From IMG/VR virus record IMGVR_UViG_3300042940_002333: a stretch of DNA of 64,000 bases. The stretch is one strand, 5' to 3'. The stretch is from an uncultured virus (IMG/VR IMGVR_UViG_3300042940_002333) (Duplodnaviria; Heunggongvirae; Uroviricota; Caudoviricetes). A program made the position numbers and the translations under genes. Below are positions 24,302 through 60,391 of the stretch, piece by piece. The first letter of the stretch is position 1, and every line of letters starts with the position of its first letter. Below the pieces are notes generated by a model, which did no database searches, was not told where the DNA came from, and saw nothing but the letters and a program-made list of their open reading frames with translations.

Positions 24302-24328
24302 AATTTTTACATTTTCTTTCGAGCTTAA

Positions 24329-24628: not shown

Positions 24629-24701
24629 AAGTGTTTTATATATATATTGTTTTTATTATTTTAAAGTCCACCAATCTTGTTTCATTCAACTGATTTTTTT
24701 T

Positions 24702-24911: not shown

Positions 24912-24927
24912 AATTGTTTTTTATATT

Positions 24928-42614: not shown

Positions 42615-43535
42615 ATGTCAGGAATAGATAGCTTATTCAATAGATCAGGACGGAGGAAGATTGCCTATGCTCCTAATGACCTTGAACGTCAGCCTTTACT
42701 TACTATTGTATGTGGTATGAAAGGTGTTGGTAAAACATACCAAGGTATAAAGGATATTGACCGATACGTTACTGATAACCCTAAAACAGGTAAAAAGGGT
42801 CGTAAGGCTTTAATTCTCGATTTTAATAACGAGGAGTCTTACCAAAAATATAAAGCTGTATTACCAAAATATATTAAAACACTTACCGAACCAAGAGCCA
42901 GACGTGTTCCTCCATTTGATGAGTATGGAAAACAATACGACCTGGATAAAATGAAATTGGTTGCAGAGTACACTATATTTAACTTCAAGAATGGATTACT
43001 TGTACTTGAGGATATTGATAAATATATGACCGGCGCAAAAGGTAAATCGCTAATTGGTGCAATGACTACCAACCGACATAGTGGTATGGATATTTTAATC
43101 ACACATCAGTCTGTTTCTAAGGTAACACAAACCGAATGGCAGAATGCCGCGTTTGTTCGCCTTCATCACCAGCTTGACGACGTTGATCGTATTGAAGATG
43201 CTTTGCCGAATTATCCTTTAATGAAAATCGCACAGATCCTTGTAGATAGAAGATATTACGAAGCAGTGCGTCAATATAAAGAAATGGGTACTATTTCTGA
43301 CGACGAGTTCCGTAAGCGTAGAAGTTTCTTTGTGTATATTGATATGATGGAACATAAGATCATTGGTGGTACAGTAGATGAGTTCCGTTCATCAGTAATG
43401 GAATTTATCCGACAAAATCCTCGCCTTATATCAAAACGTATGCGTGTAGGCGACGCAAAGGGTAAAACATTAAGTAAAGAAGATGCTATGAGGTCTTTAT
43501 TTCAAGACTACGCGCACTACTATGAAAAACGCTGA
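42615..43535 (+). CDS. FtsK/HerA-superfamily (A32-like) genome-packaging ATPase
   Basis: Walker A GMKGVGKT, Walker B LLVLEDID, arginine finger and Gln sensor in NRHSGMDILITHQS; located just upstream of the capsid candidate. Confidence 0.8.
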   Translation: MSGIDSLFNRSGRRKIAYAPNDLERQPLLTIVCGMKGVGKTYQGIKDIDRYVTDNPKTGKKGRKALILDFNNEESYQKYKAVLPKYIKTLTEPRARRVPPFDEYGKQYDLDKMKLVAEYTIFNFKNGLLVLEDIDKYMTGAKGKSLIGAMTTNRHSGMDILITHQSVSKVTQTEWQNAAFVRLHHQLDDVDRIEDALPNYPLMKIAQILVDRRYYEAVRQYKEMGTISDDEFRKRRSFFVYIDMMEHKIIGGTVDEFRSSVMEFIRQNPRLISKRMRVGDAKGKTLSKEDAMRSLFQDYAHYYEKR

Positions 43536-43885: not shown

Positions 43886-44584
43886 ATGAATATGCAAGAT
43901 TTCTATTTCGAGTCAGCCGACTACTCAAATTATGATGGAGACGCGCTGAATGAATCTAACTATTTCGCACAAGGCGGAAATGAAGCAGCATTACAGAATG
44001 TTGTTGAACCGTTAGATCGTACATTAACTTTCCGCGTAACGAACGCGGGTCCAACAAATCCAGCTATTGCTATTTTGTTTGACGGAAACGTAAGTCCTTT
44101 AGTTCAACCTGCCGGTGTTACCGTAACTGTTGCTGAGACAGGTGGTGGTGCTGGATCTCACGATCAGGTACGCGTTGAAACTTTAGGTAACCCATTCGTT
44201 ATCCAAGGTCTTCGTTACTTCGTAGGTAACGCACAACAATTTGGTAACGCTTTAACCATTCAAAAGCGTTTCCCAACTGGTAAATTGATCCAGTACTTAT
44301 GGCAACCAGCTAACTATGTATCACCGACTAACCTTAACCCGTTAGTAATTGATGCTATCGATTTCGGTTTGGTTGTTGATGGACGTACACAGATCCAAGT
44401 ACCTGTTGATTTCACTGGTGCTCCGAACATCGTTACTTTAGTGTTCACATTGAAAGCTAAAACAAGTAACGCTCATATGTTGTTCGGTAAGAATCCAAAA
44501 GAGCTTGCAGTAGCGCCTCGCGTAGTAGGTAACCCAGTTGCCGACATCGCATTAGTGCGTTCACAAGGCAGACAAATTGGATAA
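43886..44584 (+). CDS. putative major capsid protein (single jelly-roll-like, 232 aa)
   Basis: Beta-strand-rich with no TM; codon use typical of high expression (CGT, GGT, AAC, TTC, ATC); strong A-rich leader; own terminator; next to the ATPase; acidic N-terminal arm with ESADY/SNYDG/ESNY. Confidence 0.6.
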   Translation: MNMQDFYFESADYSNYDGDALNESNYFAQGGNEAALQNVVEPLDRTLTFRVTNAGPTNPAIAILFDGNVSPLVQPAGVTVTVAETGGGAGSHDQVRVETLGNPFVIQGLRYFVGNAQQFGNALTIQKRFPTGKLIQYLWQPANYVSPTNLNPLVIDAIDFGLVVDGRTQIQVPVDFTGAPNIVTLVFTLKAKTSNAHMLFGKNPKELAVAPRVVGNPVADIALVRSQGRQIG

Positions 44585-44674: not shown

Positions 44675-45268
44675 ATGCAAAACTTCAATCATAATACACT
44701 AACAAACGGATTATCAGACGGCAGACTTGGCGTGCAGAGAGGGAGTGTTAAACAACTTGGCGAATCAAACTATTTGGTTTCTAACGACGGTGTTCAAACA
44801 ATGGAACTTCCTAGAAATATGTTGGGGCCAAAAAAACATCAGGGTGCAAGAAGCACACCTTTATTAATACCTCCTATTAAATATATAGTTTATAACAACC
44901 CACAAGTTGCTTATGACTTCCTTATAAGTAAAGGCTTAAATGTAGAGCCAAGTATCCCGTCAACCTATCAGTTCGCAAGAATTTTCGTTAAGGAAAACGG
45001 AGATCAGGGAATACTTGAATTTGTAGCCGCAGCTCACCCAGATAAAGAAACTATCGTTAAGGCTCTTGGTCTTGATAAAAAAGAATCGAATTTTGACGGA
45101 GATTCTGCGCCGACACAAACAACATCAGATAGATCAACTTCAGCAAGCCCGGCTAAAACACCAGTTACCGAAACTGCAGGTGAGTGGATAAAGCTTAATC
45201 AAAAGACAATTATTATTGTTTTAGCTGTGATCATATTCTTTTTATTAATAAACAGAGCAAGTAAGTAA
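44675..45268 (+). CDS. C-terminally anchored membrane protein (ESNY, ESNFDG)
   Basis: C-terminal TM followed by a basic tail. Confidence 0.8.
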   Translation: MQNFNHNTLTNGLSDGRLGVQRGSVKQLGESNYLVSNDGVQTMELPRNMLGPKKHQGARSTPLLIPPIKYIVYNNPQVAYDFLISKGLNVEPSIPSTYQFARIFVKENGDQGILEFVAAAHPDKETIVKALGLDKKESNFDGDSAPTQTTSDRSTSASPAKTPVTETAGEWIKLNQKTIIIVLAVIIFFLLINRASK

Positions 45269-45906
45269 TGATTTACATTGACGATTATAACTCAAAAGTT
45301 ATTAGCAACGGTCCTCCTAAAAAAGAGGACAAGGCAATGCTTGCCGATACAAAAAAACAAATGGATAGCAGACAACAAGCTATCTTTTGGTATTTAGCTG
45401 GGGTAACTATTGGTTATAATTACGAAGAGGTAAAAGTACTTCTTTCTAAATACGGATACGATGTATCAAACGAACAAGATGCCGCTACTGCAATAGCAGA
45501 AATGATCGGTACTCCGAAATGGACAAAGTTCCTTTTAGAGTTCGGTAATCTTATTGAAGAAAGCGTTGATGAAAGCGTATTTAATAAACTTGAAGATGGT
45601 GCCGAAGAAAGTAGCTTCGTTGCAGCTCTTATCGGTGCAATCGGAGCTATCGGAGGTTCCTCACTTGGACTTGCTAAATCATCAAAAGATAAAAAAGCAG
45701 CAGAAGTAAACGCGAAAGCTGCAATGTTCGCAGGTATAACAAATGTGTTAGCTGAGAAACAAAGAGTTGACGCAGAGAGAGAGAGAACACTTCGCGAAGA
45801 AAAGAAAAGTACAATCTGGATAGTTATTGCTGTTGTAGTTGTATTATTAGCAATTATTGGATTTGTAGTTTATAAAAGAATGAAAGCAAAAGCTATTGCT
45901 AATTAA
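45268..45906 (+). CDS. C-terminally anchored membrane protein (ESSF)
   Basis: ESSF followed by hydrophobic VAALIGAIGAIGG; C-terminal TM. Confidence 0.8.
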   Translation: MIYIDDYNSKVISNGPPKKEDKAMLADTKKQMDSRQQAIFWYLAGVTIGYNYEEVKVLLSKYGYDVSNEQDAATAIAEMIGTPKWTKFLLEFGNLIEESVDESVFNKLEDGAEESSFVAALIGAIGAIGGSSLGLAKSSKDKKAAEVNAKAAMFAGITNVLAEKQRVDAERERTLREEKKSTIWIVIAVVVVLLAIIGFVVYKRMKAKAIAN

Positions 45907-45950
45907 TGTAGTAGTAGTAAAATTGAATAAAAATAACTTAAAATACTAAA

Positions 45951-46478
45951 ATGAATAACGGAAACGGTTTTGTATATTCGGGACAAGAAGTACCAGGAAT
46001 GGGAAACAGCCCTTACAGTAATTTCAATCCTAGTAAATGGAATGAAGCAGATTTTATGAGTAATTTTGATGGTGGTGACGATGGACTAAACTATCGTTTC
46101 TTTGATCAGGATGAAAATGGATATACCGGTAATGATGTTGTAGAAGAAGCTGATTTCTTGGGAAATCTTTTTGCTTGCAGAAGACAATGTAAAGCTGACC
46201 AAGGTGGGTATCCAAGTTTAAGACAATGTATCCGTGCCTGTAAAGGTAAAGGACCAACAAGATCAGCTCTTAAAGGAAAAGAAGCTGACACTAACGCTCA
46301 AATGGCTGCCGCATTAACAGCACTGGCCTCTGACAAAGGTAACAATTCTGCAGCTAGAGAATCATCTGGTGGTAGTTCAAAAACAATCATTTGGGTAGTT
46401 GTAGGAATAGTAGCAGTAATTGCTATTGCACTATTAATTTATTTTTTAACCAGAAACAAAGCTGTGCCGGTTGCATAA
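45951..46478 (+). CDS. C-terminally anchored Cys-containing membrane protein
   Basis: SNF/EADF repeats; CRRQC...CIRAC; C-terminal TM. Confidence 0.8.
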   Translation: MNNGNGFVYSGQEVPGMGNSPYSNFNPSKWNEADFMSNFDGGDDGLNYRFFDQDENGYTGNDVVEEADFLGNLFACRRQCKADQGGYPSLRQCIRACKGKGPTRSALKGKEADTNAQMAAALTALASDKGNNSAARESSGGSSKTIIWVVVGIVAVIAIALLIYFLTRNKAVPVA

Positions 46479-46520
46479 ATTTAAAAAAACACAAAATATA
46501 AACCAAATAAATGTAAAGTT

Positions 46521-46700
46521 ATGAACGAAGAAAATCAAAAAACACCGAATGTCTATAAGACTTCGAAGACAACCTGGATACTAATTGGATTTATGGTTGT
46601 AATTTTAGGTGTTATCATTTTTATGATGACCAGAAAGAAAAAAGCAGAAGTTGGTGCAGACTTTGGTGGCGGTGAAGCGTCAGCTCCAGTTGCACCTTAA
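46521..46700 (+). CDS. small membrane protein (59 aa, not in ORF track)
   Basis: MNEENQKTPN...WILIGFMVVILGVIIFMMTRKKK. Confidence 0.7.
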   Translation: MNEENQKTPNVYKTSKTTWILIGFMVVILGVIIFMMTRKKKAEVGADFGGGEASAPVAP

Positions 46701-46711
46701 AAATAAGACAA

Positions 46712-47167
46712 ATGGCAAGAGGACTAACTGAACAAGAGAAGCAAAAAATAAAGGAGTCGGTAGTGGCTTCCTGCGTATCGAAAGGCATTAAGCCTACGGT
46801 AATGTCAGGTGGGCAAACTGTTGCTAATCCTATGTACACTTCTTGTGTTCAGTTAGGATATGCCGATGCCGTTAGAGAGGCAAGTAAAGGTAAGCTTGGT
46901 TTATGGTTTTCAAAGGTAAATTCTTTTGTTCAATCACAAGGAGGCTTAACCGGTATGTTCCAGAGCATTTCTTCTATTGCTAATCAATACAAGACTGGTA
47001 CTCCAGATCTTACTGATTCGCAAAGCACGGTGCCCAGCGATTATCCTGGCTACGTTTCAAGCAAGGAAAAAGGTGGAATGACTGGTTTATGGCTTATAAT
47101 TGTTATTTTATTGATTGTTCTTGTTATAGCATCAGTATTGTATTTTAATAAGAGCAAGAAAGCGTAA
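46712..47167 (+). CDS. C-terminally anchored membrane protein
   Basis: C-terminal TM followed by KSKKA. Confidence 0.8.
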   Translation: MARGLTEQEKQKIKESVVASCVSKGIKPTVMSGGQTVANPMYTSCVQLGYADAVREASKGKLGLWFSKVNSFVQSQGGLTGMFQSISSIANQYKTGTPDLTDSQSTVPSDYPGYVSSKEKGGMTGLWLIIVILLIVLVIASVLYFNKSKKA

Positions 47168-47310
47168 TGACAATAGAAAAAGAAGAGAGTAATAAACTGG
47201 AGAAGTATTTTACAACAAAGAAACTCTATATGAAGCTCGGACTATTGCTTCTTGGGGTTGTTATAGTTGTTTTTCTCTTTAAGAAAATGAAAGTTGAATA
47301 TGTTAGTTAG
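47167..47310 (+). CDS. small membrane protein (47 aa, not in ORF track)
   Basis: TAATG-coupled; LGLLLLGVVIVVFLFKK. Confidence 0.65.
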   Translation: MTIEKEESNKLEKYFTTKKLYMKLGLLLLGVVIVVFLFKKMKVEYVS

Positions 47311-47430: not shown

Positions 47431-47880
47431 ATGAACCTGACAAAAAACCAAATCTACATTATCTCATCGGTAATAATTATCGCTGTGATTTATTTTATGT
47501 TCTTCCGTAAGAAGACTACATCATCAACAGCTAACAAAATGGCTATGCCTCCTGCTGGTACTCAAACTGATCCGAACCCAGGTGAGTCTGGATACTACGG
47601 AAGCCAGTTCGGTTGGAACGATGGTACAAACCCTCTTTACACTTCTTTTGATCAAGCAATGGGTTCTGTTGACGGTAATGAGTCAAACAGTGTTGCTGGT
47701 ATGATGGAAAGTAATTACAAAGCTAATGCTCTATACCCTAAATATACTAACAAAGCTGCTCCTTTACATAGCGATTACGCTGCAAACGATGTAAACGAAA
47801 GCAATTATAATATTAATCACCCTTGGACATTTCCACTGCCAGGTACAGACAACCCTTCTAAAAACTGGGAGACCAACTAA
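47431..47880 (+). CDS. N-anchored membrane protein with multiple ES[NG][YS] motifs
   Basis: TM, then ESGY, ESNS, ESNY, HSDY, ESNY. Confidence 0.8.
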   Translation: MNLTKNQIYIISSVIIIAVIYFMFFRKKTTSSTANKMAMPPAGTQTDPNPGESGYYGSQFGWNDGTNPLYTSFDQAMGSVDGNESNSVAGMMESNYKANALYPKYTNKAAPLHSDYAANDVNESNYNINHPWTFPLPGTDNPSKNWETN

Positions 47881-47885
47881 AAAAA

Positions 47886-48371
47886 ATGGGTTTGACAGGT
47901 AAAAATATAAAGTATATCATTATCGGTGCGATTGTACTGGTAGTGATATACTATTTTTTCTTCAAAAAGAAAGAAGTTGATTCTACTAAAAAGTCTGGAG
48001 AGCAGGTTAATTTACCTTTGATACAACAAGAGAGATCTGTTAAACCTGCCGAAGAAGAAGATATACAGGAATTGGGAACCGATCCAACTGTTGATCCAGA
48101 AGCTAAAATTGAACTTGGCTATGTAGGCCCTCAAGATTGTGCTGAAAACTGCAATTTTCCTTACAATAGCCGTGTAGTTAAATGCTACGATGGTAATAGG
48201 ATTGAAGAATGTTTGAATCAAGCAAATCTGATGAAACAAGCGTGCTTAATGAAGTGCGACAAGTCTTTGCCAATATACAAGAACATTGAAACAAAGGTAA
48301 ATACTCCGTTACAGGAAGATAATTACGCAAACACTTTACAAAGCATTATTGCATCAAAAGGATATGTTTAA
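47886..48371 (+). CDS. N-anchored Cys-rich membrane protein
   Basis: TM; six Cys. Confidence 0.75.
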   Translation: MGLTGKNIKYIIIGAIVLVVIYYFFFKKKEVDSTKKSGEQVNLPLIQQERSVKPAEEEDIQELGTDPTVDPEAKIELGYVGPQDCAENCNFPYNSRVVKCYDGNRIEECLNQANLMKQACLMKCDKSLPIYKNIETKVNTPLQEDNYANTLQSIIASKGYV

Positions 48372-48861
48372 AGACGCAAAAACAAAGAAAATAGCACTAA
48401 TAGTTATTGCAGTAGTTGTACTCGCTTTAATTATCTGGTATTTTTTTATTCGTAAGGATAAGAATAAAATTGTAATTAATCTACCTGATAGTTCTTTTGA
48501 TGATGGGATAAGCCCAGATAGCTTAAATGATGCAAAAGAAACTGAATTGAAAAATATGCCGGGATTATTAAATCTTGAGTATAGAATTTCAAAGTACGGG
48601 AAGAAAAATGTATTCCCTATGATTATCGAGAAAATTACACCTGGCGAAATTGAATTACCAAATCGCAGGTCATTATTAAATAAAGACGCAGAGTATAAGT
48701 TTATTGATGTGTTACCTGGCGATCAAATTAAGATCGTCTATATGCAAAGACTAAACTATACAATAGACCACAATGTGTTCACAGATGTTTTTTTAGTTAC
48801 CGATAAGGATAATTTAATCGCTGTAACACAAGCAAAAGAACATTTTAAATTAGTAAATTAG
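48364..48861 (+). CDS. N-anchored membrane protein
   Basis: Likely start MFKDAK; TM ending WYFFIRK. Confidence 0.75.
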   Translation: MFKDAKTKKIALIVIAVVVLALIIWYFFIRKDKNKIVINLPDSSFDDGISPDSLNDAKETELKNMPGLLNLEYRISKYGKKNVFPMIIEKITPGEIELPNRRSLLNKDAEYKFIDVLPGDQIKIVYMQRLNYTIDHNVFTDVFLVTDKDNLIAVTQAKEHFKLVN

Positions 48862-48874: not shown

Positions 48875-49240
48875 CCTGACAATGACTTTAACTAAAAATC
48901 ATTACACAATTATCGCAGTAATAATAGGACTTATTGCTGTTTGGTATTTCTTTTTAAGAAAAAAACCAACCGAAAGCGGTTACACTAAAAGATTCGCTTC
49001 TGTTACTCCATCTGTTACTCCAGAGGAAACTCGCGCTTGTAACGCCTCAACAACTAATGCTTGTGGAACAAATATGGTTTGCGTGAACGGACGCTGTGAA
49101 TTTGCTTCTGGTTCACACTGGTAAAAATAAATAAATAATTATAAAAACCTGACAATGACTTTAACTAAAAATCATTACACAATTATCGCAGTAATAATAG
49201 GACTTATTGCTGTTTGGTATTTCTTTTTAAGAAAAAAACC
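48875..49240 (+). repeat. 93 bp exact direct repeat (48875-48967 and 49148-49240)
   Basis: Identical start region and leader coding sequence of two adjacent genes, diverging at the ES motif. Confidence 0.9.
48882..49124 (+). CDS. small membrane protein: TM + ESGY + Cys-rich tail
   Basis: CNASTTNACGTNMVCVNGRC. Confidence 0.8.
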   Translation: MTLTKNHYTIIAVIIGLIAVWYFFLRKKPTESGYTKRFASVTPSVTPEETRACNASTTNACGTNMVCVNGRCEFASGSHW

Positions 49241-49358
49241 GGTTGAAAGTAATTTTAAGGCTGCTGGTGTGAGCTATCCAAATTGTAAAAGAGAATGCGG
49301 TCGCTGCACTCCAACTAATACGCCTTGTATTGGCGCAGGTGGATATTTAGTAGACTAA
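49155..49358 (+). CDS. small membrane protein: TM + ESNF + Cys-rich tail
   Basis: CKRECGRCTPTNTPC. Confidence 0.8.
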   Translation: MTLTKNHYTIIAVIIGLIAVWYFFLRKKPVESNFKAAGVSYPNCKRECGRCTPTNTPCIGAGGYLVD

Positions 49359-49393
49359 AATTAAGTAAATTAATAACATAAAAAACCTGACAA

Positions 49394-49717
49394 ATGAATA
49401 TCACTAAAAAACAATGGATGATCATAGGTGTAATCGCCGTGATCGCAGTATGGTACTTCTTTTTAAGAAAGAAAAAACCGGCAGAAAGCGGATACGCAGC
49501 TTACCAATTAGATCCTAACGGAATCGAAAGTGGTTTTGCGGCATCAATGGGGAAAGTACCTTCAAGGATTAAAGGAGGCGGAACGTCGCAAGCAGGGAAA
49601 GGCTATTGGGTTTCATCTATTGAGGATGGTAACGACTATTGCAGATGGTATGATGCAAACGGAGTTAACACCGTAACTTACAACTTACCTTGTACCGCAG
49701 CGCAAGCAAATATGTAA
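49394..49717 (+). CDS. small membrane protein: TM + ESGY/ESGF + Cys tail
   Basis: KKQWMIIG...WYFFLRKKKPAESGY; same leader family as 24329 and 24702. Confidence 0.8.
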   Translation: MNITKKQWMIIGVIAVIAVWYFFLRKKKPAESGYAAYQLDPNGIESGFAASMGKVPSRIKGGGTSQAGKGYWVSSIEDGNDYCRWYDANGVNTVTYNLPCTAAQANM

Positions 49718-49733: not shown

Positions 49734-50462
49734 ATGAAATACGAAGTAGATTTAGAAGAAAGACCAACACTGATAAAGTTCAAGGTGGACATAAAAGGCC
49801 CGCAGTTGATTACTATTGTCGGATTTGATCCAGACCATAAAGATACCGTATATTTCGCAAGAACAGCTCGCGTAACGCAAAGAGGACAAGTGCTTGAAAT
49901 ACCTATGCCTATCGCGCCAAAGAGATTGATACTTGAAATTAATCCAGAAAATCGTTCTTTCGGTAGTTATTTGAACATATATGACATTGTAGTTTTAGAT
50001 TTACCTGCAACTACGACTGTGTTCCCTGAGAAAACATTGGAGTTTTACAACTTCCTTAAAAAGTTCGCTAAAGAAGCAGGTTATATCGATCCAGGGTTTT
50101 ATGTAAGCAAGGATGAGAATTATGTCATCTGGGCGAAAGAAACTATGGACAAAGAGGGAACGCCGGCAAAGGTTAATCGTAGAACAGGCGTGGTTAAGAT
50201 TAGCTTGAGCAAAATGAGAGAATATACTGTGTTTATGCGTATTTTCATTGGGCTTCACGAATTTTTCCACTATGCCTTACAAACTACCGATGAGGTTTCT
50301 GCCGATATGGGTGCTGCAAAAGTTTATTTAGCAATGGGCTACCCTAAGTCAGAAGCGAATTATTCGATGACCAAGATATTTGACAATAGCCCTTCAGCAT
50401 TAGAGCGTGTAAAAGTTTTGGATAAAGTTATTAAAGAAAGTGATTACGCGAGAAATCGATAA
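49734..50462 (+). CDS. zincin-like metalloprotease (HExxH)
   Basis: FIGLHEFFH...DEVSAD (third-ligand ExxAD pattern); ends with KESDY. Confidence 0.7.
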   Translation: MKYEVDLEERPTLIKFKVDIKGPQLITIVGFDPDHKDTVYFARTARVTQRGQVLEIPMPIAPKRLILEINPENRSFGSYLNIYDIVVLDLPATTTVFPEKTLEFYNFLKKFAKEAGYIDPGFYVSKDENYVIWAKETMDKEGTPAKVNRRTGVVKISLSKMREYTVFMRIFIGLHEFFHYALQTTDEVSADMGAAKVYLAMGYPKSEANYSMTKIFDNSPSALERVKVLDKVIKESDYARNR

Positions 50463-50476: not shown

Positions 50477-51610
50477 ATGGGAAAACTATTATCACAAAGA
50501 GAACAGATGAACTTGCCATTCGGTATGAATGAGCAGGAACTAATCTTTTATAGCCCTACGCTTTACGAAATGTATCGTAACGAGGGTCAAGGGTATGATA
50601 AAGAGGCTTTCCGTTGGGATCCGATTGTAAGCAAAGGTATGCTAGCAAGTGAATTTGCTGTTGCAGACGGCTTGTGGTGGACAATGTTACTTACTCCTGA
50701 ATCTCAAATGCAAATAAATCCAGGCGACAATCTTGTAGTTCCTGTTGAAACATACGATGATTACAGACAACTTCCGCCGGTAGAAAAGTATTTGACCTCA
50801 GACGTATCTTATACTGGTAAGGTTATAAATGAGAGAAGTAATTTTCACGACTCTAGCAATAGTTTTTGTGGAGATTTCAATGGTTATTTTAATCAAGAGT
50901 CAAACGCTATCGGAAAGGTATCTGCGAGTGAGGTATCGCCTATATCTACACCGAGATCGATATCACCTGTATCTACACCAAGATCAGCATCACCTATTAT
51001 TAAACCTAGTGCTGGAACTACTGTTCCTGGAAAATCAGCGCCAATTACAGGTGGCGGAGGTACTCGTACTGGAGAAGATAACCCACCTATTTGTGATATG
51101 AGCTTTGGAGAATGGGGGCCTTGTGAAAACGGAATTCAAAGAAGGGAAGTAATTTTATCTCCTGATGGTTGTATTCAGATTGGTCGTCCTATTGCTGCAC
51201 AACCTTGCGGAACTGGAACTAGTGATGCAGATATGGGTGACGGAGGTGGATCTATGGGTGGCGGCGGTGGATTTGGCGGCGGCGGTGGAGGCGGAGCTTC
51301 TCCCGAAGAATCAACTGGCGCAAAAGAGGGAGAACAAGCTACTGTTGTATGTAAAACAAATTATAAACCAGTTATTATCGGTATTGTTGCTGGTTTAGCT
51401 GTTGGATATTTATACGCTAAAAACAAAAACAAGGATATTAAGTTGTTCAGTGCTGTTGTAGCGATTATCGGAGGAATACTTGGTTTTGTTTACGCAAAAC
51501 ATCAGTGTAGCCCGATTGGATTATTAACAAAATTGAAAATACCGAGCAAGTCAAATGCGTCGGCACCTGCGACAGCGAAAACAGAAGCTAAATACTACGG
51601 AGGTAGATAA
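50477..51610 (+). CDS. membrane protein with a TSP1-like Cys motif, Gly/Ser-Pro-rich linkers and two C-terminal TMs
   Basis: CDMSFGEWGPCENGIQRREV; SPxSTPRS repeats; poly-Gly. Confidence 0.75.
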   Translation: MGKLLSQREQMNLPFGMNEQELIFYSPTLYEMYRNEGQGYDKEAFRWDPIVSKGMLASEFAVADGLWWTMLLTPESQMQINPGDNLVVPVETYDDYRQLPPVEKYLTSDVSYTGKVINERSNFHDSSNSFCGDFNGYFNQESNAIGKVSASEVSPISTPRSISPVSTPRSASPIIKPSAGTTVPGKSAPITGGGGTRTGEDNPPICDMSFGEWGPCENGIQRREVILSPDGCIQIGRPIAAQPCGTGTSDADMGDGGGSMGGGGGFGGGGGGGASPEESTGAKEGEQATVVCKTNYKPVIIGIVAGLAVGYLYAKNKNKDIKLFSAVVAIIGGILGFVYAKHQCSPIGLLTKLKIPSKSNASAPATAKTEAKYYGGR

Positions 51611-51750
51611 TGGAAGGAAAATTGTTCGGAATAGTGCCAAAGGGCTTTATGGTAGCAGTTATTATGATGTGGATGCTGATTATAACCATTATGGTTTTTC
51701 AGATATATAAAAGAAACAGATTAGAAAAAGAGTTTTTAAACCAAAACTAA
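51610..51750 (+). CDS. small membrane protein (46 aa, not in ORF track)
   Basis: TAATG-coupled; FMVAVIMMWMLIITIMVF. Confidence 0.65.
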   Translation: MEGKLFGIVPKGFMVAVIMMWMLIITIMVFQIYKRNRLEKEFLNQN

Positions 51751-51914
51751 TGATTGAGAGCAGACATATATTACTTTTACTACTCGGCATAGCTTTATTA
51801 GCTATCATCTGGAAATTATCAAAAACAAAGGAAACTGAAAGCTCTTACGTTGCCGGTATTAACGGAAGTTGGTATGTTAAAGAGCCGTGGCAAGACTCTT
51901 GGCCGTTACTTTAA
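51750..51914 (+). CDS. small membrane protein with ESSY (54 aa, not in ORF track)
   Basis: HILLLLLGIALLAIIWK...TESSY. Confidence 0.7.
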   Translation: MIESRHILLLLLGIALLAIIWKLSKTKETESSYVAGINGSWYVKEPWQDSWPLL

Positions 51915-51925
51915 AAATTAAAACT

Positions 51926-52792
51926 ATGTGCGGAAATAGCAAAAATAAAATAAACTGTCAATGCGACGGTAACTGCGATTGCGGAGAGATACTGCCTAAC
52001 GGGATGATCTCTTGCGATAATTGTGGCTGGGAAGCAAAAGAAAAGTATAATGCCATTACCGGCAGATTTACTTGTCCTTCTTGCAGAACAGAAAAGCTTA
52101 ACTTAGATTATTATTCAAATTACTCTAATAACTCAAATAAAAAAAATCAAATGACAAACAACGACAACTTTACGCAAGGATTAGTTGGTTTCGCGACTGC
52201 TAACCCTGGTTTCCTTGACTGGAGCGAAAACCCACTTGGAAAACTAAACGGAAACAACGAATCAAACTTTGCTAATAATGTATCTTCACAGAATGTTGTT
52301 GGATACGCTATTGGGCAACAATGGATGCCGATGAATCCAATTCACGGACAAGATATCACTGAAAGTAATTTCTTATTATTAGGATTAGGCGCGCTTGCTT
52401 TAAGAAAAGATATTTTCTGCGGAAGGTATTGTAAGTCTTTAGGTTATATGCGTTCTGCCGACAAAAATTCTTTCAAAAGATGTAAGGCTGCTTGTAAGGT
52501 AAACTTCAAAAAAGCTAAAAAAGGTCAATGGAAATATCCTGCTGCACCAGAGGGTGCTGAATCAAATATTTCTCCAGAAGATTTAGACGCTCAATCACAA
52601 AGAGATGTAAATTCAATGTCTAAAGAGCAGATAGACAATGCTGCAAGAAACGTTGCCTCACAAAGTGGATCTACACCTATCATACAACCAGAAAAAAACA
52701 ATACGATGATGTATGTAATTATTGGCGCTGTTGCGTTAGTGATTATTGTAGCACTTATTGTGTTTATGCGTAGAAAGGCTACGACAGCCTAA
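51926..52792 (+). CDS. C-terminally anchored protein with an N-terminal Cys/Zn-ribbon-like segment and ESNF motifs
   Basis: Start MCGNSK (possible second start at 52151); CDNC...CPSC; ESNF twice; CGRYC...CKAAC; C-terminal TM. Confidence 0.75.
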   Translation: MCGNSKNKINCQCDGNCDCGEILPNGMISCDNCGWEAKEKYNAITGRFTCPSCRTEKLNLDYYSNYSNNSNKKNQMTNNDNFTQGLVGFATANPGFLDWSENPLGKLNGNNESNFANNVSSQNVVGYAIGQQWMPMNPIHGQDITESNFLLLGLGALALRKDIFCGRYCKSLGYMRSADKNSFKRCKAACKVNFKKAKKGQWKYPAAPEGAESNISPEDLDAQSQRDVNSMSKEQIDNAARNVASQSGSTPIIQPEKNNTMMYVIIGAVALVIIVALIVFMRRKATTA

Positions 52793-52852
52793 TAATTACT
52801 ACCGGTGATAGCTGGATTGTAACGATGATTGTTTTACCGCATAAATTAATGA

Positions 52853-53632
52853 ATGTACTACATATACAAAATAGCATATCGTATCTCAGACGAGATTATT
52901 GCCAAGAAAGAAGCCGAAAAGCCTTTTTGGTGGGAGCATCTTCACCCAGAAGTGAAAGGTCAGTCCATCGAGGAGATTGAAAAAGGTATTCTTGAGGCAG
53001 GTACTCCCGCAGAGAAGCTGGCAGAAATGACTAAGCACGAAAAGTTCTTGGCTGTCAGCGAGGGTTGCTATGTTATTGATAGTAAAGAGTCACTTAGAGT
53101 AAGTCAGGAGTTAGAGTCGTTAAAGAAAGATGTCGAGCGTAACAAAGCCTCTTTCTTAGGACAAGCCTCTCCGAATATACAAAAACAAGTACAAGAAACG
53201 TATGAGCCTATTTCTTTTGGTAATCCAACTCCATCAGCAGTAGGCGCGCCTGCGTCGCCGAGTCCTATTCCAGCAAGTACTATCTCTCCAAACGAAAGTG
53301 GTTTTGATATACCTGGAGAACCGTCAAGTCCGTCTATGACAAAAAGTAATGATCCGTTATCGCTTGATGATGACCATTTAAAAATTATGGCTGCAAACGT
53401 AAATGATTCCGACTTAAAAGATGACGAGGATAAGCCTTTCGGTGGTTCTTTAGCCGGTGATATGAGTTCTACGCCTGGAAAGGCAGAGCTTCGCAAGTAT
53501 GCACAATCGATTGTTAGTAAAACGGTAAGTGATATTAACTCGAAAGCAGATGGTATTCCTGATGATGTTGCTGTTATGAAAGAGCAAGAGCTTCTTCAAG
53601 CAGTTATTGATGAATTAAAATCATTACGATAA
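52853..53632 (+). CDS. hypothetical soluble protein (ESGF)
   Basis: 259 aa with a Pro/Ser-rich middle; possibly scaffold-like. Confidence 0.7.
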   Translation: MYYIYKIAYRISDEIIAKKEAEKPFWWEHLHPEVKGQSIEEIEKGILEAGTPAEKLAEMTKHEKFLAVSEGCYVIDSKESLRVSQELESLKKDVERNKASFLGQASPNIQKQVQETYEPISFGNPTPSAVGAPASPSPIPASTISPNESGFDIPGEPSSPSMTKSNDPLSLDDDHLKIMAANVNDSDLKDDEDKPFGGSLAGDMSSTPGKAELRKYAQSIVSKTVSDINSKADGIPDDVAVMKEQELLQAVIDELKSLR

Positions 53633-53671
53633 TTAATTTAATAATTACCAAATTATAAAAACAAAAAAATA

Positions 53672-54658
53672 ATGAATACAGGAGATATAAATTCATTTTA
53701 TCCATTAAATCCAGACTCGGGTTTAGAATCTGCTTATTACCCATATAATAACAGCGAGAGTTCTTATGATGATCTTGATGATAGTAAAGATAATCAAGGT
53801 AGCATTGAAGATGAGGGCGAGGAAGATGAGGTTCCCGGTGTTCGTGATAAATGCCCTTTTGGAGAATTTAGAACGCGTGTAAGAGCTAAGAAACAAGAAT
53901 TAAAAAATCAGTATGGTGAGGGTTTTTTCTCCATTGGAGAATGTGGTATTAAGCCGTCAAGAGTTGCTTATAATCCAAATGTAAAGATTAGCACTACTTA
54001 TTGGCCGTTTACGGGTTGCGGTGTAAAACCGGCTCGAATGTCGTATGGTCCTCCACATTTTAGAACTAAAAATAACGCCGCCAGATACGATGCCGATACT
54101 CAAAGATTTAATAATGATATGGCTAAGTGGTACGAATGTCAAAATCGTCAAGGTAAGGTAGCTATTCAAGGTAACGAACAAGCTTACGATAGCGCAACTG
54201 TAAGGTGGAATGGGGCTATGGCTGTTTGGAATAAGTGTCGTGAAGAAAATAAAGGAATTTGGGTATCAGGATGGCGAAAAGAATGGCGTAAATTTAAAAA
54301 AGCTGGCGGTCTTAATCAATTAAGAGATCAGTGTCGTGGTGTTGTGCCTCCGCCGCACGCTTCAGCTCCACCGCGTTCTTGTGCGGATATGGAAAGAGAT
54401 TTCGACATAATTGCAGGTCAAAGTTGGGGAACGGCCGATCCAGCAATAAAGAATGAATGGATTGCAAAAGGATGTAAAGGTACAGCAAAAGCCATTGCTA
54501 ATAAAATCGTTGCTAATAAAGAAACTGATATGCAGGGATCCAGAACATCTGGCGAAGAAACTCCTCCTACTGATAACAAAAAAATGTATATTATTATTGC
54601 TGTAATTGTGCTTATCGTAATCGCAACAATTTTTATTATAAAAAGACAAATGAAGTAA
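53672..54658 (+). CDS. C-terminally anchored Cys/Trp-rich membrane protein
   Basis: ESAY, ESSY; internal duplications CGIKP/CGVKP; C-terminal TM. Confidence 0.8.
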   Translation: MNTGDINSFYPLNPDSGLESAYYPYNNSESSYDDLDDSKDNQGSIEDEGEEDEVPGVRDKCPFGEFRTRVRAKKQELKNQYGEGFFSIGECGIKPSRVAYNPNVKISTTYWPFTGCGVKPARMSYGPPHFRTKNNAARYDADTQRFNNDMAKWYECQNRQGKVAIQGNEQAYDSATVRWNGAMAVWNKCREENKGIWVSGWRKEWRKFKKAGGLNQLRDQCRGVVPPPHASAPPRSCADMERDFDIIAGQSWGTADPAIKNEWIAKGCKGTAKAIANKIVANKETDMQGSRTSGEETPPTDNKKMYIIIAVIVLIVIATIFIIKRQMK

Positions 54659-54690
54659 GAATGTAATGTATAATCAAAAAATGTAAAGCT

Positions 54691-55830
54691 ATGTCAGATT
54701 TAAAAATCAATTATTACGAAGTCCTTAAAGATACTCCTATGTGGGATCTGGACGAAACGAACAAGGTTGCCTTGCCGGTAAAAACAGATGATAAAAAGAA
54801 TATCTCTGCTGAAAACTGGAAGAATGTATGGATGGTTGAGAAAGGAAAGTATGTTAAGAGTTTTGGTCAGACGAGAGTGATGAAATCATATCCCGACAAC
54901 AAGAAAGAAGAGTTTATTCTGCTTGTAAGTGGGAACGGTGTTCTTCTCAAAGATGTAAATCTTTTTAAAGATAAAGTAGATGATTGTGGGTGCGACGGAA
55001 ATCCTATCGCTTTACCAACAGAAGTAATGAAAGCTATGGAAGCAGAAAATAAAACAGAAAACACGGAACATAAAGCATTGGATAAAGAGAGTGCATATCT
55101 TAACAAATCAAAAGGCTTTGATACAAAAGGCTTATACGGATTTTTATTGGGTGCCGTAATCGGTGCTGCAATTATGTGGCTATCTACCAAAGATAAAAAG
55201 AAAACAATTATCGGTGCAGTTGCCGGTGGTGTACTCGGAATGATTATCGGGTATTTTATTGGTCGCAGAGGTACAAAGAAGTTGGAAACAATGGATAAGC
55301 TCAATCAAATTGAAAGAGTTGCTAACAATACGGATGTTGAAACCGTTGAGTCTGGTGCTAAATCAGACGCCGACAATCAAGGTTTCTTTCAATTAGGACA
55401 AACTTATGATTTTTCGATTCCTTACCCTGTTTATGCGCTTATTTATGAGGAAAAAACATTCTTCGTAGCTAAAGACCAAAAGACAAACAAAAAGGCTATA
55501 ATTAAGCCTAATGGCAAGATAAGAGGAAAATTAATAGAGGTTAAAGAGCCGGCTTTCTTTGTTCCGAACCCACACACTAAAAAAGTTGAAAGAATAGTAA
55601 GCCAAAAGCCTTTACCTTATTTGGATTTAGGGAATAACATTTTCATTCCTTTAGCTGTGGTTGATCCAGATTCAATGATAACCCCAGAAGAAGCAATGAC
55701 ATTCTTAACAACAGGAAAAGGTCTTGAAAACGAAGTTTACGTTAAAGGAAGATATGCGGGTAAGAGATTGTTTAACCTTATGTATATGCCGTCACACGCA
55801 GTAATTATAAACAACAAATTTGGAAATTAA
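54691..55830 (+). CDS. membrane protein with a central two-TM glycine-zipper hairpin
   Basis: GFLLGAVIGAAIMW...IIGAVAGGVLGMIIGYFIG; ESAY. Confidence 0.8.
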   Translation: MSDLKINYYEVLKDTPMWDLDETNKVALPVKTDDKKNISAENWKNVWMVEKGKYVKSFGQTRVMKSYPDNKKEEFILLVSGNGVLLKDVNLFKDKVDDCGCDGNPIALPTEVMKAMEAENKTENTEHKALDKESAYLNKSKGFDTKGLYGFLLGAVIGAAIMWLSTKDKKKTIIGAVAGGVLGMIIGYFIGRRGTKKLETMDKLNQIERVANNTDVETVESGAKSDADNQGFFQLGQTYDFSIPYPVYALIYEEKTFFVAKDQKTNKKAIIKPNGKIRGKLIEVKEPAFFVPNPHTKKVERIVSQKPLPYLDLGNNIFIPLAVVDPDSMITPEEAMTFLTTGKGLENEVYVKGRYAGKRLFNLMYMPSHAVIINNKFGN

Positions 55831-55946
55831 TGACACCAGAGGAAAGAGAAAATAGAAAAAAAACGATTGTATTTTTCTTAGGAGCCTTAGCTTTAATTGC
55901 TTTGGTAATCATATACGTTAAGCAATTAAAAGAAGCAGAAGATTAA
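55830..55946 (+). CDS. small membrane protein (38 aa, not in ORF track)
   Basis: TAATG-coupled on both sides; IVFFLGALALIALVIIYV. Confidence 0.65.
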   Translation: MTPEERENRKKTIVFFLGALALIALVIIYVKQLKEAED

Positions 55947-56626
55947 TGAAAACAAAGAACATAATAATAATTGGCGTGGTTACCATTGTGGTACTCGGCA
56001 TTGTTATTTACGTTCTTGTGAGAAAAGGTAAGTTTAAAAATAAGAACCCAAAGAACATACTTATTGTAGGGGATAGCCAAAGTGCGATAAAAACGGCTGA
56101 CGGGAAAGATATTTCTTTTACCTGGTCAAGATTATTGAAGAACTCTTTAGAACCAAAAGGCTACTCGGTTGATGTACTTGCTTTAGGCGGTATGCCTACT
56201 AAATGGATGAGGGATAATTTACCGGCACAACTATCAAAGAAAAAATACGATAGGGTTTATATTCTCGGAGGCGGTAACGATTCGGCTAATTCATCTATTG
56301 CTTTAAAAACTACTCTTGATAATTTTCAGTCAATGGTAGATATGGCAAACGCTAATGGTGCAGATCCTTTTATTATGCTGGGGTATAGAATTGACAACTT
56401 TAGTGATTACCGAAAAATGCCTTTAACTATTTACGTTAAGAAGCAAGAGGATTGGATTCCTTACATTGAGAGAAGAAAACAAATACAAGATAATTTAAAG
56501 AGAATTAAAAATGCTGGGATTGTTCCCGTTTATGATTTGAATGGAATGACAAGTGATGGAATACACCCGACGGCACAAGGACATAAGATAATTGCTCAAA
56601 AAATGATAAACCATATTACCCAGTAA
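55946..56626 (+). CDS. membrane-anchored SGNH/GDSL hydrolase
   Basis: IVGDSQS, GG, GGGND, DGIHP blocks; N-terminal TM. Confidence 0.9.
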   Translation: MKTKNIIIIGVVTIVVLGIVIYVLVRKGKFKNKNPKNILIVGDSQSAIKTADGKDISFTWSRLLKNSLEPKGYSVDVLALGGMPTKWMRDNLPAQLSKKKYDRVYILGGGNDSANSSIALKTTLDNFQSMVDMANANGADPFIMLGYRIDNFSDYRKMPLTIYVKKQEDWIPYIERRKQIQDNLKRIKNAGIVPVYDLNGMTSDGIHPTAQGHKIIAQKMINHITQ

Positions 56627-57333
56627 TGACAAAGGAAGAAGCATTAAGAGATTTTTTTAATACTGTTCTCAAAGGGGAGAGTAAGACTTATAATGACCAT
56701 AACTGGTATAGTACGTCTGGACTTAGGGGTTACATACAGGGAAGTGGAAATAGCCCTTATTCGTTGCTTAAAAAACCATTGAGTGAGTACACGCTTGGCG
56801 AAATAAAACAATTTCAGTCAAGATCACGAGATTCGGTTGGACAGCTTTGGGCAACAGGTCGCTATCAGATTATACCAAGTACATTAAAAGGCATTCAGTC
56901 AAAGCTGGGATTATCAGATTCTGCAAAATACGATAGGGCAACCCAAGATAAAATGGCTTACGGTTTAATTGTTGAGAGAAAACCGATTAATGACTACATA
57001 AAAGGTTCCGTGCCAGACACAACAACTACCAGGCAAAACGCAGCGTTGCATATGGCAATGATCTGGTCAAGCATTGGTGTTCCTTACGCGGTAAATGGAA
57101 AACAAACTAATCAAAGTTATTATCCAAAAGACAAAGCTTCGGTTGATACTGCTGCAGTTCAGGCAAAACTACAACAATTAAGGGGTAGTATGCTCTCAAG
57201 AGGTATTGATTTAGCTAAAGAGAACCCGAAAACAACCATAGCTATCTTTGTGATAGTAGCAATAATGATAATTGGAGCTATAATGTTATTAATTTATAGA
57301 AAAAAGATTGCAATAGCTCTAACAAAAGTGTAA
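56626..57333 (+). CDS. lysozyme-like peptidoglycan hydrolase with C-terminal TM
   Basis: GES..YN, ATGRYQIIPSTL, TQDK motifs; C-terminal TM. Confidence 0.82.
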   Translation: MTKEEALRDFFNTVLKGESKTYNDHNWYSTSGLRGYIQGSGNSPYSLLKKPLSEYTLGEIKQFQSRSRDSVGQLWATGRYQIIPSTLKGIQSKLGLSDSAKYDRATQDKMAYGLIVERKPINDYIKGSVPDTTTTRQNAALHMAMIWSSIGVPYAVNGKQTNQSYYPKDKASVDTAAVQAKLQQLRGSMLSRGIDLAKENPKTTIAIFVIVAIMIIGAIMLLIYRKKIAIALTKV

Positions 57334-57358
57334 TTTTAAAACTTAAAAACAAACAAAA

Positions 57359-57934
57359 ATGTTATACAACGGATTCGTAGTAGTAGACACTAGAGATTCT
57401 CAAATGGCAGAATTTAATAACGCCGAGGAAAGTAATTATCCTCCTGGCACTTACGCTGGTCCTGGTGGAGCTCCATCTGGAACATATGGCCCTAATTTGC
57501 CAGGAAGCTCTGGCGGATCTTCTGGACCTTTACCTGGTCTTGGCGGTACTGGTTGGGGTGGAAGTCAATCTGGTGGTGGTCAATCTCGTGGTGGAGCCGG
57601 TCAGTACATAAACGCTGACACTATTGCCGCAGGAACAAATCTACTTGGTGGTATTTTTGGAGCGATTGGTGCGTCAAAGGCAGCAAAAGGGCCTATTGCA
57701 GGAAATGTAAAGGCTGTTTGTGGCAGAAAACCATTGTTTAATATCGGTGGGAAGAAAGATAGGTATTTTGCTTGTGCAGAAAGAGTGGCAAACCCTCAAC
57801 CTGTTTTTAGAGAAACACCTCCCCCAGAATCAAACAAGGGTTTAATCATTGGATTAATTGTAGCTGTTGTGTTGATAGGGATAATTATTACAGTAGTACT
57901 TGTTATGAAAAATAAAAAAGCGGCAGTAGCTTAA
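57359..57934 (+). CDS. Gly-rich C-terminally anchored membrane protein (ESNY)
   Basis: AEESNY; CGRKP; C-terminal TM. Confidence 0.8.
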   Translation: MLYNGFVVVDTRDSQMAEFNNAEESNYPPGTYAGPGGAPSGTYGPNLPGSSGGSSGPLPGLGGTGWGGSQSGGGQSRGGAGQYINADTIAAGTNLLGGIFGAIGASKAAKGPIAGNVKAVCGRKPLFNIGGKKDRYFACAERVANPQPVFRETPPPESNKGLIIGLIVAVVLIGIIITVVLVMKNKKAAVA

Positions 57935-57944
57935 TCTAAACACT

Positions 57945-58304
57945 ATGGCACAATATAAATTTAATAAAGATTGGTCTGGCGGAACTTATGTTCCTTCGGG
58001 GCAAGGTAGAGCGGTGTCTCTTGTTTCCTTTAAACAAGGGGACGTTGTAGAGGGAACTCCAATCAGAAACGACGTAAACTCCGAGCCACCAACTTTTATT
58101 GAGTTTCAGTCTAAAATGGGAACTGTTCGTGTAGGTTACGGCGGGAGAGCAGGAAGCCCTCTAGATTTAGTGTCTGGTGGAAATGTGGCATCTAAAACGA
58201 TGGGAACTGAAACTGGATTGCTTACTAAGAAAAACATTATCATAGCCGTGGTAGTTATCGCTATCGTAGCGGCAATTATTTATTTCATTAAACTAAAAAA
58301 ATAA
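57945..58304 (+). CDS. C-terminally anchored protein with an SH3-like domain (paralog family)
   Basis: YKFNKDW...SFKQGDVVEG. Confidence 0.75.
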   Translation: MAQYKFNKDWSGGTYVPSGQGRAVSLVSFKQGDVVEGTPIRNDVNSEPPTFIEFQSKMGTVRVGYGGRAGSPLDLVSGGNVASKTMGTETGLLTKKNIIIAVVVIAIVAAIIYFIKLKK

Positions 58305-58708
58305 TGACAATAAGTTTTATATTCGATAAAGACTGGACAGGGCCAAACTTAGCTTCTTCAGGTACACAGATTTCTTTCAAAAAAGGAGAATATGTTACCG
58401 GTGAAGTTGTAGACTCTAACACTCAAGATCCAACAAACTATGTCGTTATAACTAACACTAAGGGTCAAGCTCGCGTTCCTTTTGGTGGAAAATCGTATCA
58501 AGGATTAAATTCTATACTTAAATCTCCAGTTGCTCCGTGGCTTGGAGAAACGAAAGTAGATACAACTCCTGTGGGTGATTATAAAGCAGGGGACGTCACG
58601 GAAAAAATTAAAGAAATTAGTATGCCGGTAAAGATTATCGCTGGAGTTGTTTTGGTAATCATCATATTTTTTATTGTAAAATATATTAAAAAATTAAAAA
58701 GCAAGTAA
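58304..58708 (+). CDS. C-terminally anchored protein with an SH3-like domain (paralog family)
   Basis: FIFDKDW...SFKKGEYVTG. Confidence 0.75.
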   Translation: MTISFIFDKDWTGPNLASSGTQISFKKGEYVTGEVVDSNTQDPTNYVVITNTKGQARVPFGGKSYQGLNSILKSPVAPWLGETKVDTTPVGDYKAGDVTEKIKEISMPVKIIAGVVLVIIIFFIVKYIKKLKSK

Positions 58709-59007
58709 TGAACAAGAACGTAAAAGCCATCATCATCATTGTAGTTCTTCTGATAATAGCGTATCTGGTTTACAGGTTTGCGTTCAAGAATAAGAACTTG
58801 GTAAAAGGATATGCAAAGAAACCTGGAGATTGGGTTGCTTGTCAAGTAAAAGACTTTGACAGTAAAAACTATCAGGGCTACAATACTGCCGGTGTACAAA
58901 TTATTTTTAAGAAAGATGCGGTAAAAACCCGCCCAGGAAAAGATACTAATCTAGGTCAATGTGCTGACGCTGTTGCTAACCTTAATGTTTACACTTTAAA
59001 AGCATAA
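58708..59007 (+). CDS. N-anchored membrane protein
   Basis: N-terminal TM. Confidence 0.75.
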   Translation: MNKNVKAIIIIVVLLIIAYLVYRFAFKNKNLVKGYAKKPGDWVACQVKDFDSKNYQGYNTAGVQIIFKKDAVKTRPGKDTNLGQCADAVANLNVYTLKA

Positions 59008-59009
59008 AA

Positions 59010-59504
59010 ATGGAAAATAAAACATCAAAAATATTAGGGTTATTTAAGGACATTCCAGGTTGGGCAAAGGGAGTAATGCTTATTATCGTTGTCTTGCTTA
59101 TTGCGTGGATAGTGTATATGTTTTACAAGACAACTGGATTTCAAACTGGTGAGGAGCGTGATATTCAAAAAGACCTTGATAAAGACCAAGATGTTTTAAT
59201 CGATAAAGGTCAAAAACCTACCTTTCCGAGAACTTGGTATAGAGGTGCTGCCGATAAACTTTATGGTTGCGGTGCAGGTCAAGCACTTGGTGGAACAGAC
59301 GAGAGTTGTATTTACTCAGTGTTTGTTCAACTAAAGAACGATCTTGACGTGTTACTTTTAATTGAGGCTTTCGGCTCAAGAAGAAAAGGTTTTTCTTTTG
59401 CAGAAGCCAATTTAACAGGATGGATCACTGACGAAATGAACTCAGAAGAAAGAAGTGCACTAAATAATATATTAGCAAGAAGAGTAATTAAATACAGATT
59501 TTAA
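59010..59504 (+). CDS. N-anchored membrane protein with an annexin-like repeat
   Basis: ADKLY...GGTDESCIYSVF...L..WITDEM. Confidence 0.65.
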   Translation: MENKTSKILGLFKDIPGWAKGVMLIIVVLLIAWIVYMFYKTTGFQTGEERDIQKDLDKDQDVLIDKGQKPTFPRTWYRGAADKLYGCGAGQALGGTDESCIYSVFVQLKNDLDVLLLIEAFGSRRKGFSFAEANLTGWITDEMNSEERSALNNILARRVIKYRF

Positions 59505-59505
59505 T

Positions 59506-59958: not shown

Positions 59959-59986
59959 TGGATTTATACGGAACAAAATATAGAAG

Positions 59987-60370: not shown

Positions 60371-60391
60371 TAACCTAAAAAACAAAATAAA

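Follow-up and report, generated by a model that had tools for sequence, protein, structure and literature searches.

The stretch of DNA analysed here (64,000 nucleotides; hereafter the window) comes from a virus-like contig that extends to 107 kb or more, and at 48875..49717 it carries three plus-strand genes for small, related proteins. Member 1 (48882..49124, 80 aa) consists of a signal-anchor leader, an ESGY tag (residues 31-34; codons at 48972..48983), a Thr/Pro spacer and a core with four cysteines. Member 2 (49155..49358, 67 aa) has the leader of member 1, an ESNF tag (49245..49256) and an unrelated four-cysteine core, while member 3 (49394..49717, 107 aa) has a related leader, two tags (residues 31 and 45; ESGY at 49484-49495 and ESGF at 49526-49537, spanning 49484..49537) and a core with two cysteines. 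As the first-pass annotation of this DNA had observed, members 1 and 2 share 93 identical nucleotides on the plus strand (48875..48967 and 49148..49240) and become unrelated after the tag, and member 3 has the same type of leader and a similar upstream region (the upstream and leader sequence is 72% identical to that of member 1 across 76 nt), although it differs in having two tags and only two cysteines. Each 93-nt copy comprises 7 nt of upstream start region and leader codons 1-29, and because the repeat ends one codon before the tag, the tags themselves already differ (T-ESGY versus V-ESNF).

The read-coverage check for an assembly artefact proposed in that annotation was carried out. In all four of the lake runs examined, out of 24, the 93 nt form a separate contig with a depth (61.8, 109.7, 10.7 and 29.5) about twice that of the flanks (approximately 30, 52, 7 and 14), indicating that the repeat is real; these four runs may be the window's own source. 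The contig of the first tail is no less deep than the flanks and extends 30 nt into the second copy, and the exact proteins of members 1, 2 and 3 occur on 107, 117 and 114 contigs, respectively (overall range 93-117). Although no run contig examined spans both copies or the whole stretch, as would be expected of an artefact, that explanation is in effect refuted by these data.

A constant leader with interchangeable tails

The window contains five members of this family, two of which, both on the minus strand, had been missed: member 4 (24329..24628, 99 aa), with the leader, ESDY, a basic Gly/Thr spacer and a four-cysteine core, and member 5 (24702..24911, 69 aa), with the leader, an ESNY tag and a four-cysteine core. 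Both belong to a second, minus-strand cluster of N-anchored tagged genes (23819..25131). There, 24928 carries ESNF, and 23819-24301 joins an anchor and ESSF to a DUF5856/phrog_858 domain, presumably ferritin- or Dps-like, giving a folded, enzyme-like cargo behind a leader of the family kind. On the plus strand, 47431..48861 encodes three more N-anchored proteins whose leaders match the family's more loosely, and one of these proteins (47431-47880) has three tags and no cysteine. Members are scattered at other loci as well (numbered here with the prefix L): five lie within 6.5 kb in L004, dispersed among other late genes, and scattered members are also found in L005, as they are in the window's cluster at 24 kb.

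A profile built from the five members retrieved 211 proteins, of which the 120 listed were analysed. The leader pattern is present in 119 of these, with a mean identity of 70%, and a tag-like motif lies no more than nine residues off in 118 of the 119, conforming to strict ES[NGSD][YFW] in 112; these values are partly circular because the search profile contained both leader and tag. The tag is found 2-7 residues past the basic flank of the anchor. Behind it, the tails are mostly unrelated, with only 117 of 6903 pairs similar among the listed homologues and 99 full-length classes among 118 listed, so that the proposal of a constant leader joined to non-homologous cores held up when homologues were collected.

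The tails nevertheless have features in common. Among the listed homologues, the number of cysteines is even in 112 of 114 Cys-bearing tails, a count to which the circularity does not apply; it ranges from 0 to 12, with widely variable spacings. CPxG occurs in 35 of 118 listed tails and two CxxC motifs in only 6, while 5 of 119 listed are short or free of cysteine. Beyond the tag the net charge is positive in 105 of 118 listed, the tail composition includes 12.4% G, 8.6% T and 7.7% P, and Gly/Pro/Thr-rich spacers precede the cores. In multi-core members, tags lie at the module borders. A Pfam scan of 97 homologues gave matches at E<=0.001 for three, with one above the cut-off, a tail matching CBM_14 (chitin-binding peritrophin-A), and gave no tail family for any of the five window members. 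For member 1, all ESM Atlas matches were below 0.9 or under the bar, and comparison of the tails with window and close-locus proteins returned no non-family match except two family-type genes that the pattern had overlooked. The family profile found nothing in the two MAGs behind L001 and L002, which are incomplete bins, and a leader DNA pattern matched 18 loci, none with leader plus tag and none with the peptidase described below. A promoter and terminator scan was at chance level.

The description of the leader as a transmembrane segment stands insofar as it is a membrane anchor, but it is of the uncleaved signal-anchor type, with neither a lipobox nor GG/GA before the tag in any of the 120 listed proteins. 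In 116 of 118 listed, Lys and Arg favor the C-terminal over the N-terminal flank of the anchor. Under the positive-inside rule, the positively charged flank of an anchor faces the cytoplasm, and the tail would therefore be cytoplasmic.

Leader plus tag is at least 90% identical in 133 pairs, of which 31 have similar tails, and 47 of 116 similar tail pairs have just one module in common. The tail of member 1 is found under another leader in homologue P0019 (tail 83%, leader 63% identical), and P0391 and P0001 have near-identical tails with altered leader starts. On this evidence, recombination that swapped leaders between genes is the best reading of the 93-nt identity, and looks likelier than the continuing expansion by duplication first suggested. 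Cores remain stable inside any one population, where allele changes fall mostly in loops and the cysteines are fixed, and some cores recur in distant viruses, which argues for a shuffled pool as opposed to free hypermutation. The family combines a conserved anchor and a tag with tails that are interchangeable, mostly cationic and nearly always even in their cysteine count, and leaders and modules are exchanged between its genes.

The tag in the late gene block of a probable tailless virus

The ES motif, at which the earlier annotation proposed a test of cleavage, is not a family-specific, RiPP-like site: it recurs across the late gene block, including the putative capsid protein, a recurrence which that annotation overlooked. 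In the late block, 18 of 44 proteins contain ES[NGSD][YF], with 23 occurrences in total versus 0.48 in shuffled sequences, and leaving out the five members there are still 17 in 13 of 39 (versus 0.44); both the pattern and the block were picked after viewing the sequence. Other proteins have 2 occurrences in 21, versus 1.36 shuffled, a control set to which the 1241-codon frame at 11226-14948 does not belong. Upstream of the family, a plus-strand run of membrane proteins (44675..47310) has the tag or the variants EA[DN]F/[YM]SNF in 44675, 45268 and 45951, and downstream, the membrane proteins of the plus-strand late block at 50477..60553 have tags in 51750, 51926, 52853, 53672, 57359 and 60392. 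In 45951 and 51926 the tag is retained right before conserved Cys modules while the upstream sequence varies. Gly/Ala/Leu-rich hydrophobic segments directly follow the tag in 45268-45906 and 51926-52792 and could be membrane-active once exposed.

The family tails contain 40 extra, internal tags in 35 of 118 listed (0.47 expected). None of 39 splits a Cys pair (7.9 at random), and of those between the first and last Cys none of 10 does so (3.9 at random, P=0.004, with two pairs not independent). At L012 (4613-5719), the homologue of 45268 is divided into two genes, the second of which starts where the tag ends in the window; this is a single case, and the second half matches 45268 at E=7e-4 only. 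An unrelated 152-aa gene separates the two halves. The homologue of 45268 in L005 has no strict tag. Cys-free anchored proteins made up of repeated tags and short spacers are encoded at L012 6260-6460, which has two near-identical 8-residue units, at L040 7450-7911 and in the window at 47431-47880.

The putative major capsid protein (43886..44584, plus strand, 232 aa) has an acidic N-terminal piece with YSNY at residue 13 and ESNY at residue 23, the latter just ahead of the fold, and a 36-sequence alignment likewise places the tag immediately before the fold, behind a spacer of variable length. It is modelled as a single jelly roll (pLDDT 69, best Z 6.7) that matches capsid and penton chains, but non-viral jelly rolls as well. 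Upstream lies a gene for a Zot-like P-loop ATPase, the putative genome-packaging ATPase (42615..43535, plus strand), and we infer a capsid role for 43886 from this gene order together with the middling model. The window also encodes SNF2 helicases, some 30 small membrane proteins, and proteins with endolysin-like and peptidoglycan-binding matches, and its proteins gave no Pfam or PHROGs match for a portal, tail-tube or HK97 capsid protein; we infer a tailless, membrane-containing virus. A Shine-Dalgarno-like word precedes only 5 of 64 window genes and the starts are A-rich, a combination that is a trait of Bacteroidota. The capsid alignment found only two matches in GTDB, both short contigs in Flavobacteriales and Bacteroidetes bins, and this is probably a lake virus of Bacteroidota bacteria.

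Several other features of the window deserve mention. An SNF2 helicase whose matches to Hint and LAGLIDADG make an intein likely is encoded at 184-2832, in a frame open from the first base. Unannotated ORFs of very large size (2614, 1241, 1697 and 722 codons) run through 3400-22178, with DUF4314 and WGR as the only matches, and a bacterial DnaA C-terminal helix-turn-helix domain is encoded at 40298-40915, just upstream of the packaging module. No Dsb- or thioredoxin-type CxxC motif was found in the window, which is only a part of its contig. The capsid protein, ATPase and peptidase had no match in 50,697 phage records, and IMG/VR searches with member 1, the capsid protein, the peptidase and the capsid alignment returned no close relative.

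A candidate maturation peptidase and its distant relatives

The gene that follows member 3 after a gap of 16 nt (49734..50462, plus strand) encodes a 242-aa candidate maturation protease. Its model (pLDDT 87.7) has a CBM-like N-terminal beta-sandwich followed by a zincin-type domain, for which the best fold match is the M48 peptidase BepA (Z 8.4, rmsd 3.7, 116 aligned), followed by 3c37 (Z 7.0) and abylysin (Z 6.7). While these Z-scores are middling, the predicted zincin fold is supported by the motif: an HExxH (50256-50270, plus strand) is part of an HExxH-x7-E-x3-D (H175, E176, H179, E187 and D191) that is invariant in 40 of 40 close and 102 of 102 wide aligned homologues, and the downstream Glu, which as third zinc ligand characterizes gluzincins, is conserved. 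The protein is thus a predicted gluzincin metallopeptidase that may act in maturation. HExxH and the downstream Glu are also features of M48 peptidases and minigluzincins (BepA, 3c37, abylysin, jannalysin), with the fold match covering residues ~96-240; unlike these, it has a CBM-like beta-sandwich at its N-terminus, lacks a signal peptide and is encoded in a viral late block. It has no Pfam or PHROG match, and in the ESM Atlas it scores 0.97 with unnamed viral clusters and only 0.80-0.87 with peptidase families. A predicted complex of the peptidase with zinc and residues 24-55 of member 1 scored 0.00, with the controls also not folded, and speaks neither for nor against an interaction.

Homologues of the peptidase form 1001 clusters at 50% identity (E<=0.001). 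In 7 of the 12 close loci that include an upstream gene, one of the 7 being the same virus, the immediate upstream neighbour of the peptidase gene is a family gene; the other 5 lack this adjacency. At L023 (3759-4250), the peptidase is membrane-anchored at its C-terminus through a linker with the tag variant EANF, which suggests self-release or tethering of the peptidase.

IMG/VR yielded 56 loci with the peptidase, of which 34 are non-redundant. Across 407 membrane proteins of these 34 distant loci, [SA][NSG][FYA]xG occurs 111 times versus 26 in shuffled sequences (27 of 34 loci), compared with 105 versus 82 in non-membrane proteins, while ES[NGSD][YF] is not enriched (6 versus 4.9). An unguided k-mer count ranked NAxG top among 4-mers gapped at the third place (116 versus 21, 33 loci). 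Of 42 other loci, 28 have a match to the capsid profile and 27 a homologue of the ATPase, and the distant capsid homologues in many cases begin with an acidic N-terminus in which variants of the tag are repeated. Only 6 of the 42 other loci, each spanning ~20 kb at most, have paralogous leaders, and in 3 of these Cys tails follow, implying that the family is not among the core components of the system.

One of these loci, L028, is informative on the relation between family and tag. It has four genes with a different constant leader, the tag K[AS]NA[FIM]G and varied Cys tails, one of which has the core of member 3 (E=6e-15, pairwise). Membrane proteins of L028 have 12 SNAxG-type tags and no ES tag, compared with 21 ES tags and 2 of the other type in the window, and the tag of the family thus follows each virus's own code. 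The L028 leader pattern recovered just 3 loci, all on contigs already in the locus set. The window and loci L020-L081 delineate a large and apparently undescribed tailless group having a single-jelly-roll protein, a Zot-like ATPase and a gluzincin, with contigs of up to 190 kb in the protein collection. L024 (7208-19881), a small distant relative on a 347-kb contig, combines the ATPase, a jelly-roll protein and a short peptidase with tagged membrane proteins and lysins; it lies beside a tyrosine-recombinase-like (integrase-like) gene and is a probable provirus.

Interpretation and relation to known systems

The interpretation that we favor, with a probability of about 0.5, is that family members are membrane-anchored virion pro-proteins that dock through the tag and are cut by the viral zincin, and whose host-facing disulfide modules diversify by recombination. 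The anchor would insert so that the tail faces the cytoplasm, the side of the membrane on which the capsid protein and the soluble peptidase also lie, and the tag would recruit the anchored protein into the assembling particle. The zincin would then cut at the tag or beside it, trimming the propiece of the capsid protein and freeing the family cores, one per tag in multi-core members. After lysis the cysteines of the cores would pair, and the cores would most likely act at the surface of the host cell, through binding or membrane perturbation, during entry or exit. Such a site of action is proposed as the reason that cores vary between lineages and that the leader serves as a recombination hub. 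As expected for the substrates of a maturation protease like AVP, I7 or T4 gp21, the short motif is found on the putative capsid protein and on particle-type proteins, assigned to the particle by their gene block, and not on replication proteins. A cytoplasmic tail, however, fits disulfides badly, as it makes oxidation after lysis necessary, and the tags at module borders could also come from recombination at tag-coding DNA in the absence of any cutting.

The main rival is that the tag serves for docking only, binding the capsid protein or a scaffold and never being cut within the family. As a corollary, the tails would never be released, each forming a variable disulfide knob on a flexible stalk, a mini-spike that binds receptors or provides shielding. 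We consider both the proposal and its corollary possible, albeit doubtful. Tags that lie just 4-9 residues from the C-terminus, in 60392 and in homologues of 50477 in L007, L015 and L018, fit docking better than cutting, and multi-tag proteins without a core (47431; L012 6260; L040 7615), the Gly/Pro/Thr-rich spacers ahead of the cores and the single CBM_14 match (1 of 97) also point in this direction. It accounts less readily for tags that delimit whole Cys modules far from the membrane in multi-core members, for the naturally occurring division of the 45268 homologue of L012 into two genes where the tag would be, or for a peptidase with an invariant active site encoded in the same block and tethered via a tag-bearing linker in L023.

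The first-pass annotation had drawn a parallel with RiPP or toxin precursors, and the constant leader, variable Cys cores and multi-core forms agree with it, whereas neither the tailoring enzyme nor the exporter of such systems was recognised among the 64 window proteins. Taken as a full explanation, it would make the family non-virion precursors in the membrane of the infected cell, the released peptides of which exclude other viruses, block defence or kill neighbours. The leader/core and multi-core layout, the net positive post-tag tails (105 of 118 listed) and the differences in copy number and position between relatives are all compatible with this idea, but we judge it unlikely given that the tag extends to the putative capsid protein and to the membrane proteins of the late block, that lipobox and double-Gly are absent from all 120 listed, that no tailoring enzyme, exporter or immunity gene was recognised among the window proteins, and that there is no single Cys framework. 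Less probable again is a near-neutral expansion, in which a leader spread by recombination picks up whatever sequence it meets, leaving the tails nearly functionless. This would explain why most tails are unrelated (117 of 6903 pairs similar) and why 5 of 119 listed are short or Cys-free; it would not explain an even number of cysteines in 112 of 114 listed, the retention of the same core in a distant virus under another leader, or alleles that hold their cysteines while loops vary.

Beyond the favored account of anchored, zincin-cut pro-proteins, we tentatively suggest that a capsid-maturation tag and its zincin have been co-opted as a peptide-library system in large tailless bacterial viruses. 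Membrane-anchored and sometimes multi-core precursors, cut at assembly, could load or release combinatorial disulfide-stapled cationic peptides that act on bacteria, and, equally tentatively, these precursors could be reshuffled at the constant leader and traded between distant viruses. If so, the virus would encode its own counterpart of venom or multi-core RiPP precursors. The tails represent a sizeable pool of uncharacterised, probably disulfide-rich peptides. Were the favored account true, a bacterial virus without tail fibres would diversify its host-facing parts by swapping small disulfide modules behind a fixed anchor, and if the tag is a cleavage site, a large and apparently undescribed group of tailless bacterial viruses would have a maturation code that relies on a metalloprotease.

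Some known categories can be set aside. A classical RiPP cluster would require a tailoring enzyme and an exporter nearby, and the Pfam and PHROGs searches recognised neither among the 64 window proteins, the peptidase being the only candidate enzyme. Double-glycine (class II) bacteriocins are not matched, with GG/GA before the tag in 0 of 120 listed and no C39 ABC transporter among the window proteins, nor are lipoprotein exclusion factors of the Llp/Cor type, with a lipobox and lipidated Cys in 0 of 120 listed. A conotoxin-like superfamily would have one Cys framework per leader, in place of 0-12 cysteines with varying spacings. Charybdis elements (10.1101/2025.08.03.668216) are unrelated elements of 4.6 kb. 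A search of largely open-access literature returned no description of the family or the virus group. The window virus is not among the groups treated in the accessible part of PMC5894146, and PMC7198788, from its accessible part, concerns tailed Bacteroidetes viruses and does not cover it. The PRD1, PM2 and FLiP groups and single-jelly-roll viruses likewise encode a jelly-roll protein beside a P-loop ATPase along with many small membrane proteins, but differ from the present virus in that its contigs reach at least 107 kb and it has no match in the phage records searched.

Functional parallels come from viruses of eukaryotes. In adenovirus maturation, which involves pVI, pVII and L1 52/55k, the protease AVP processes numerous precursors of capsid and core proteins at one short site that they have in common (PMC4246237), and the N-terminal region of pVI serves both in binding to the capsid protein and as a cleavage substrate, the cut releasing a lytic peptide (10.1101/857581). 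AVP belongs to the papain-like cysteine proteases and comes from a eukaryotic virus without an inner membrane, whereas the candidate here is a gluzincin, and its putative substrates are mostly membrane proteins, one class of which is a shuffled paralogue family. More generally, the shared-motif maturation known in jelly-roll viruses uses cysteine proteases. In vaccinia, the tail of A17 docks on the D13 jelly-roll scaffold and is later trimmed by the I7 protease; both the protease class and the site differ from those of the candidate here, and we know of no hypervariable leader/core family in vaccinia. That feature has its counterpart in multi-core precursors of the cyanobactin PatE type and in conotoxin precursors, which have a constant leader, repeated recognition tags and variable cores, disulfide-rich in the case of conotoxins. 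The window family resembles these precursors in its conserved leader, itself partly circular as a measurement, and its variable C-terminal core or cores, and departs from them in that the leader is a membrane anchor, the tag is held in common with the capsid protein and there is no fixed Cys framework. By analogy, the family appears to work like a multi-core or conotoxin-type precursor grafted onto a viral maturation code.
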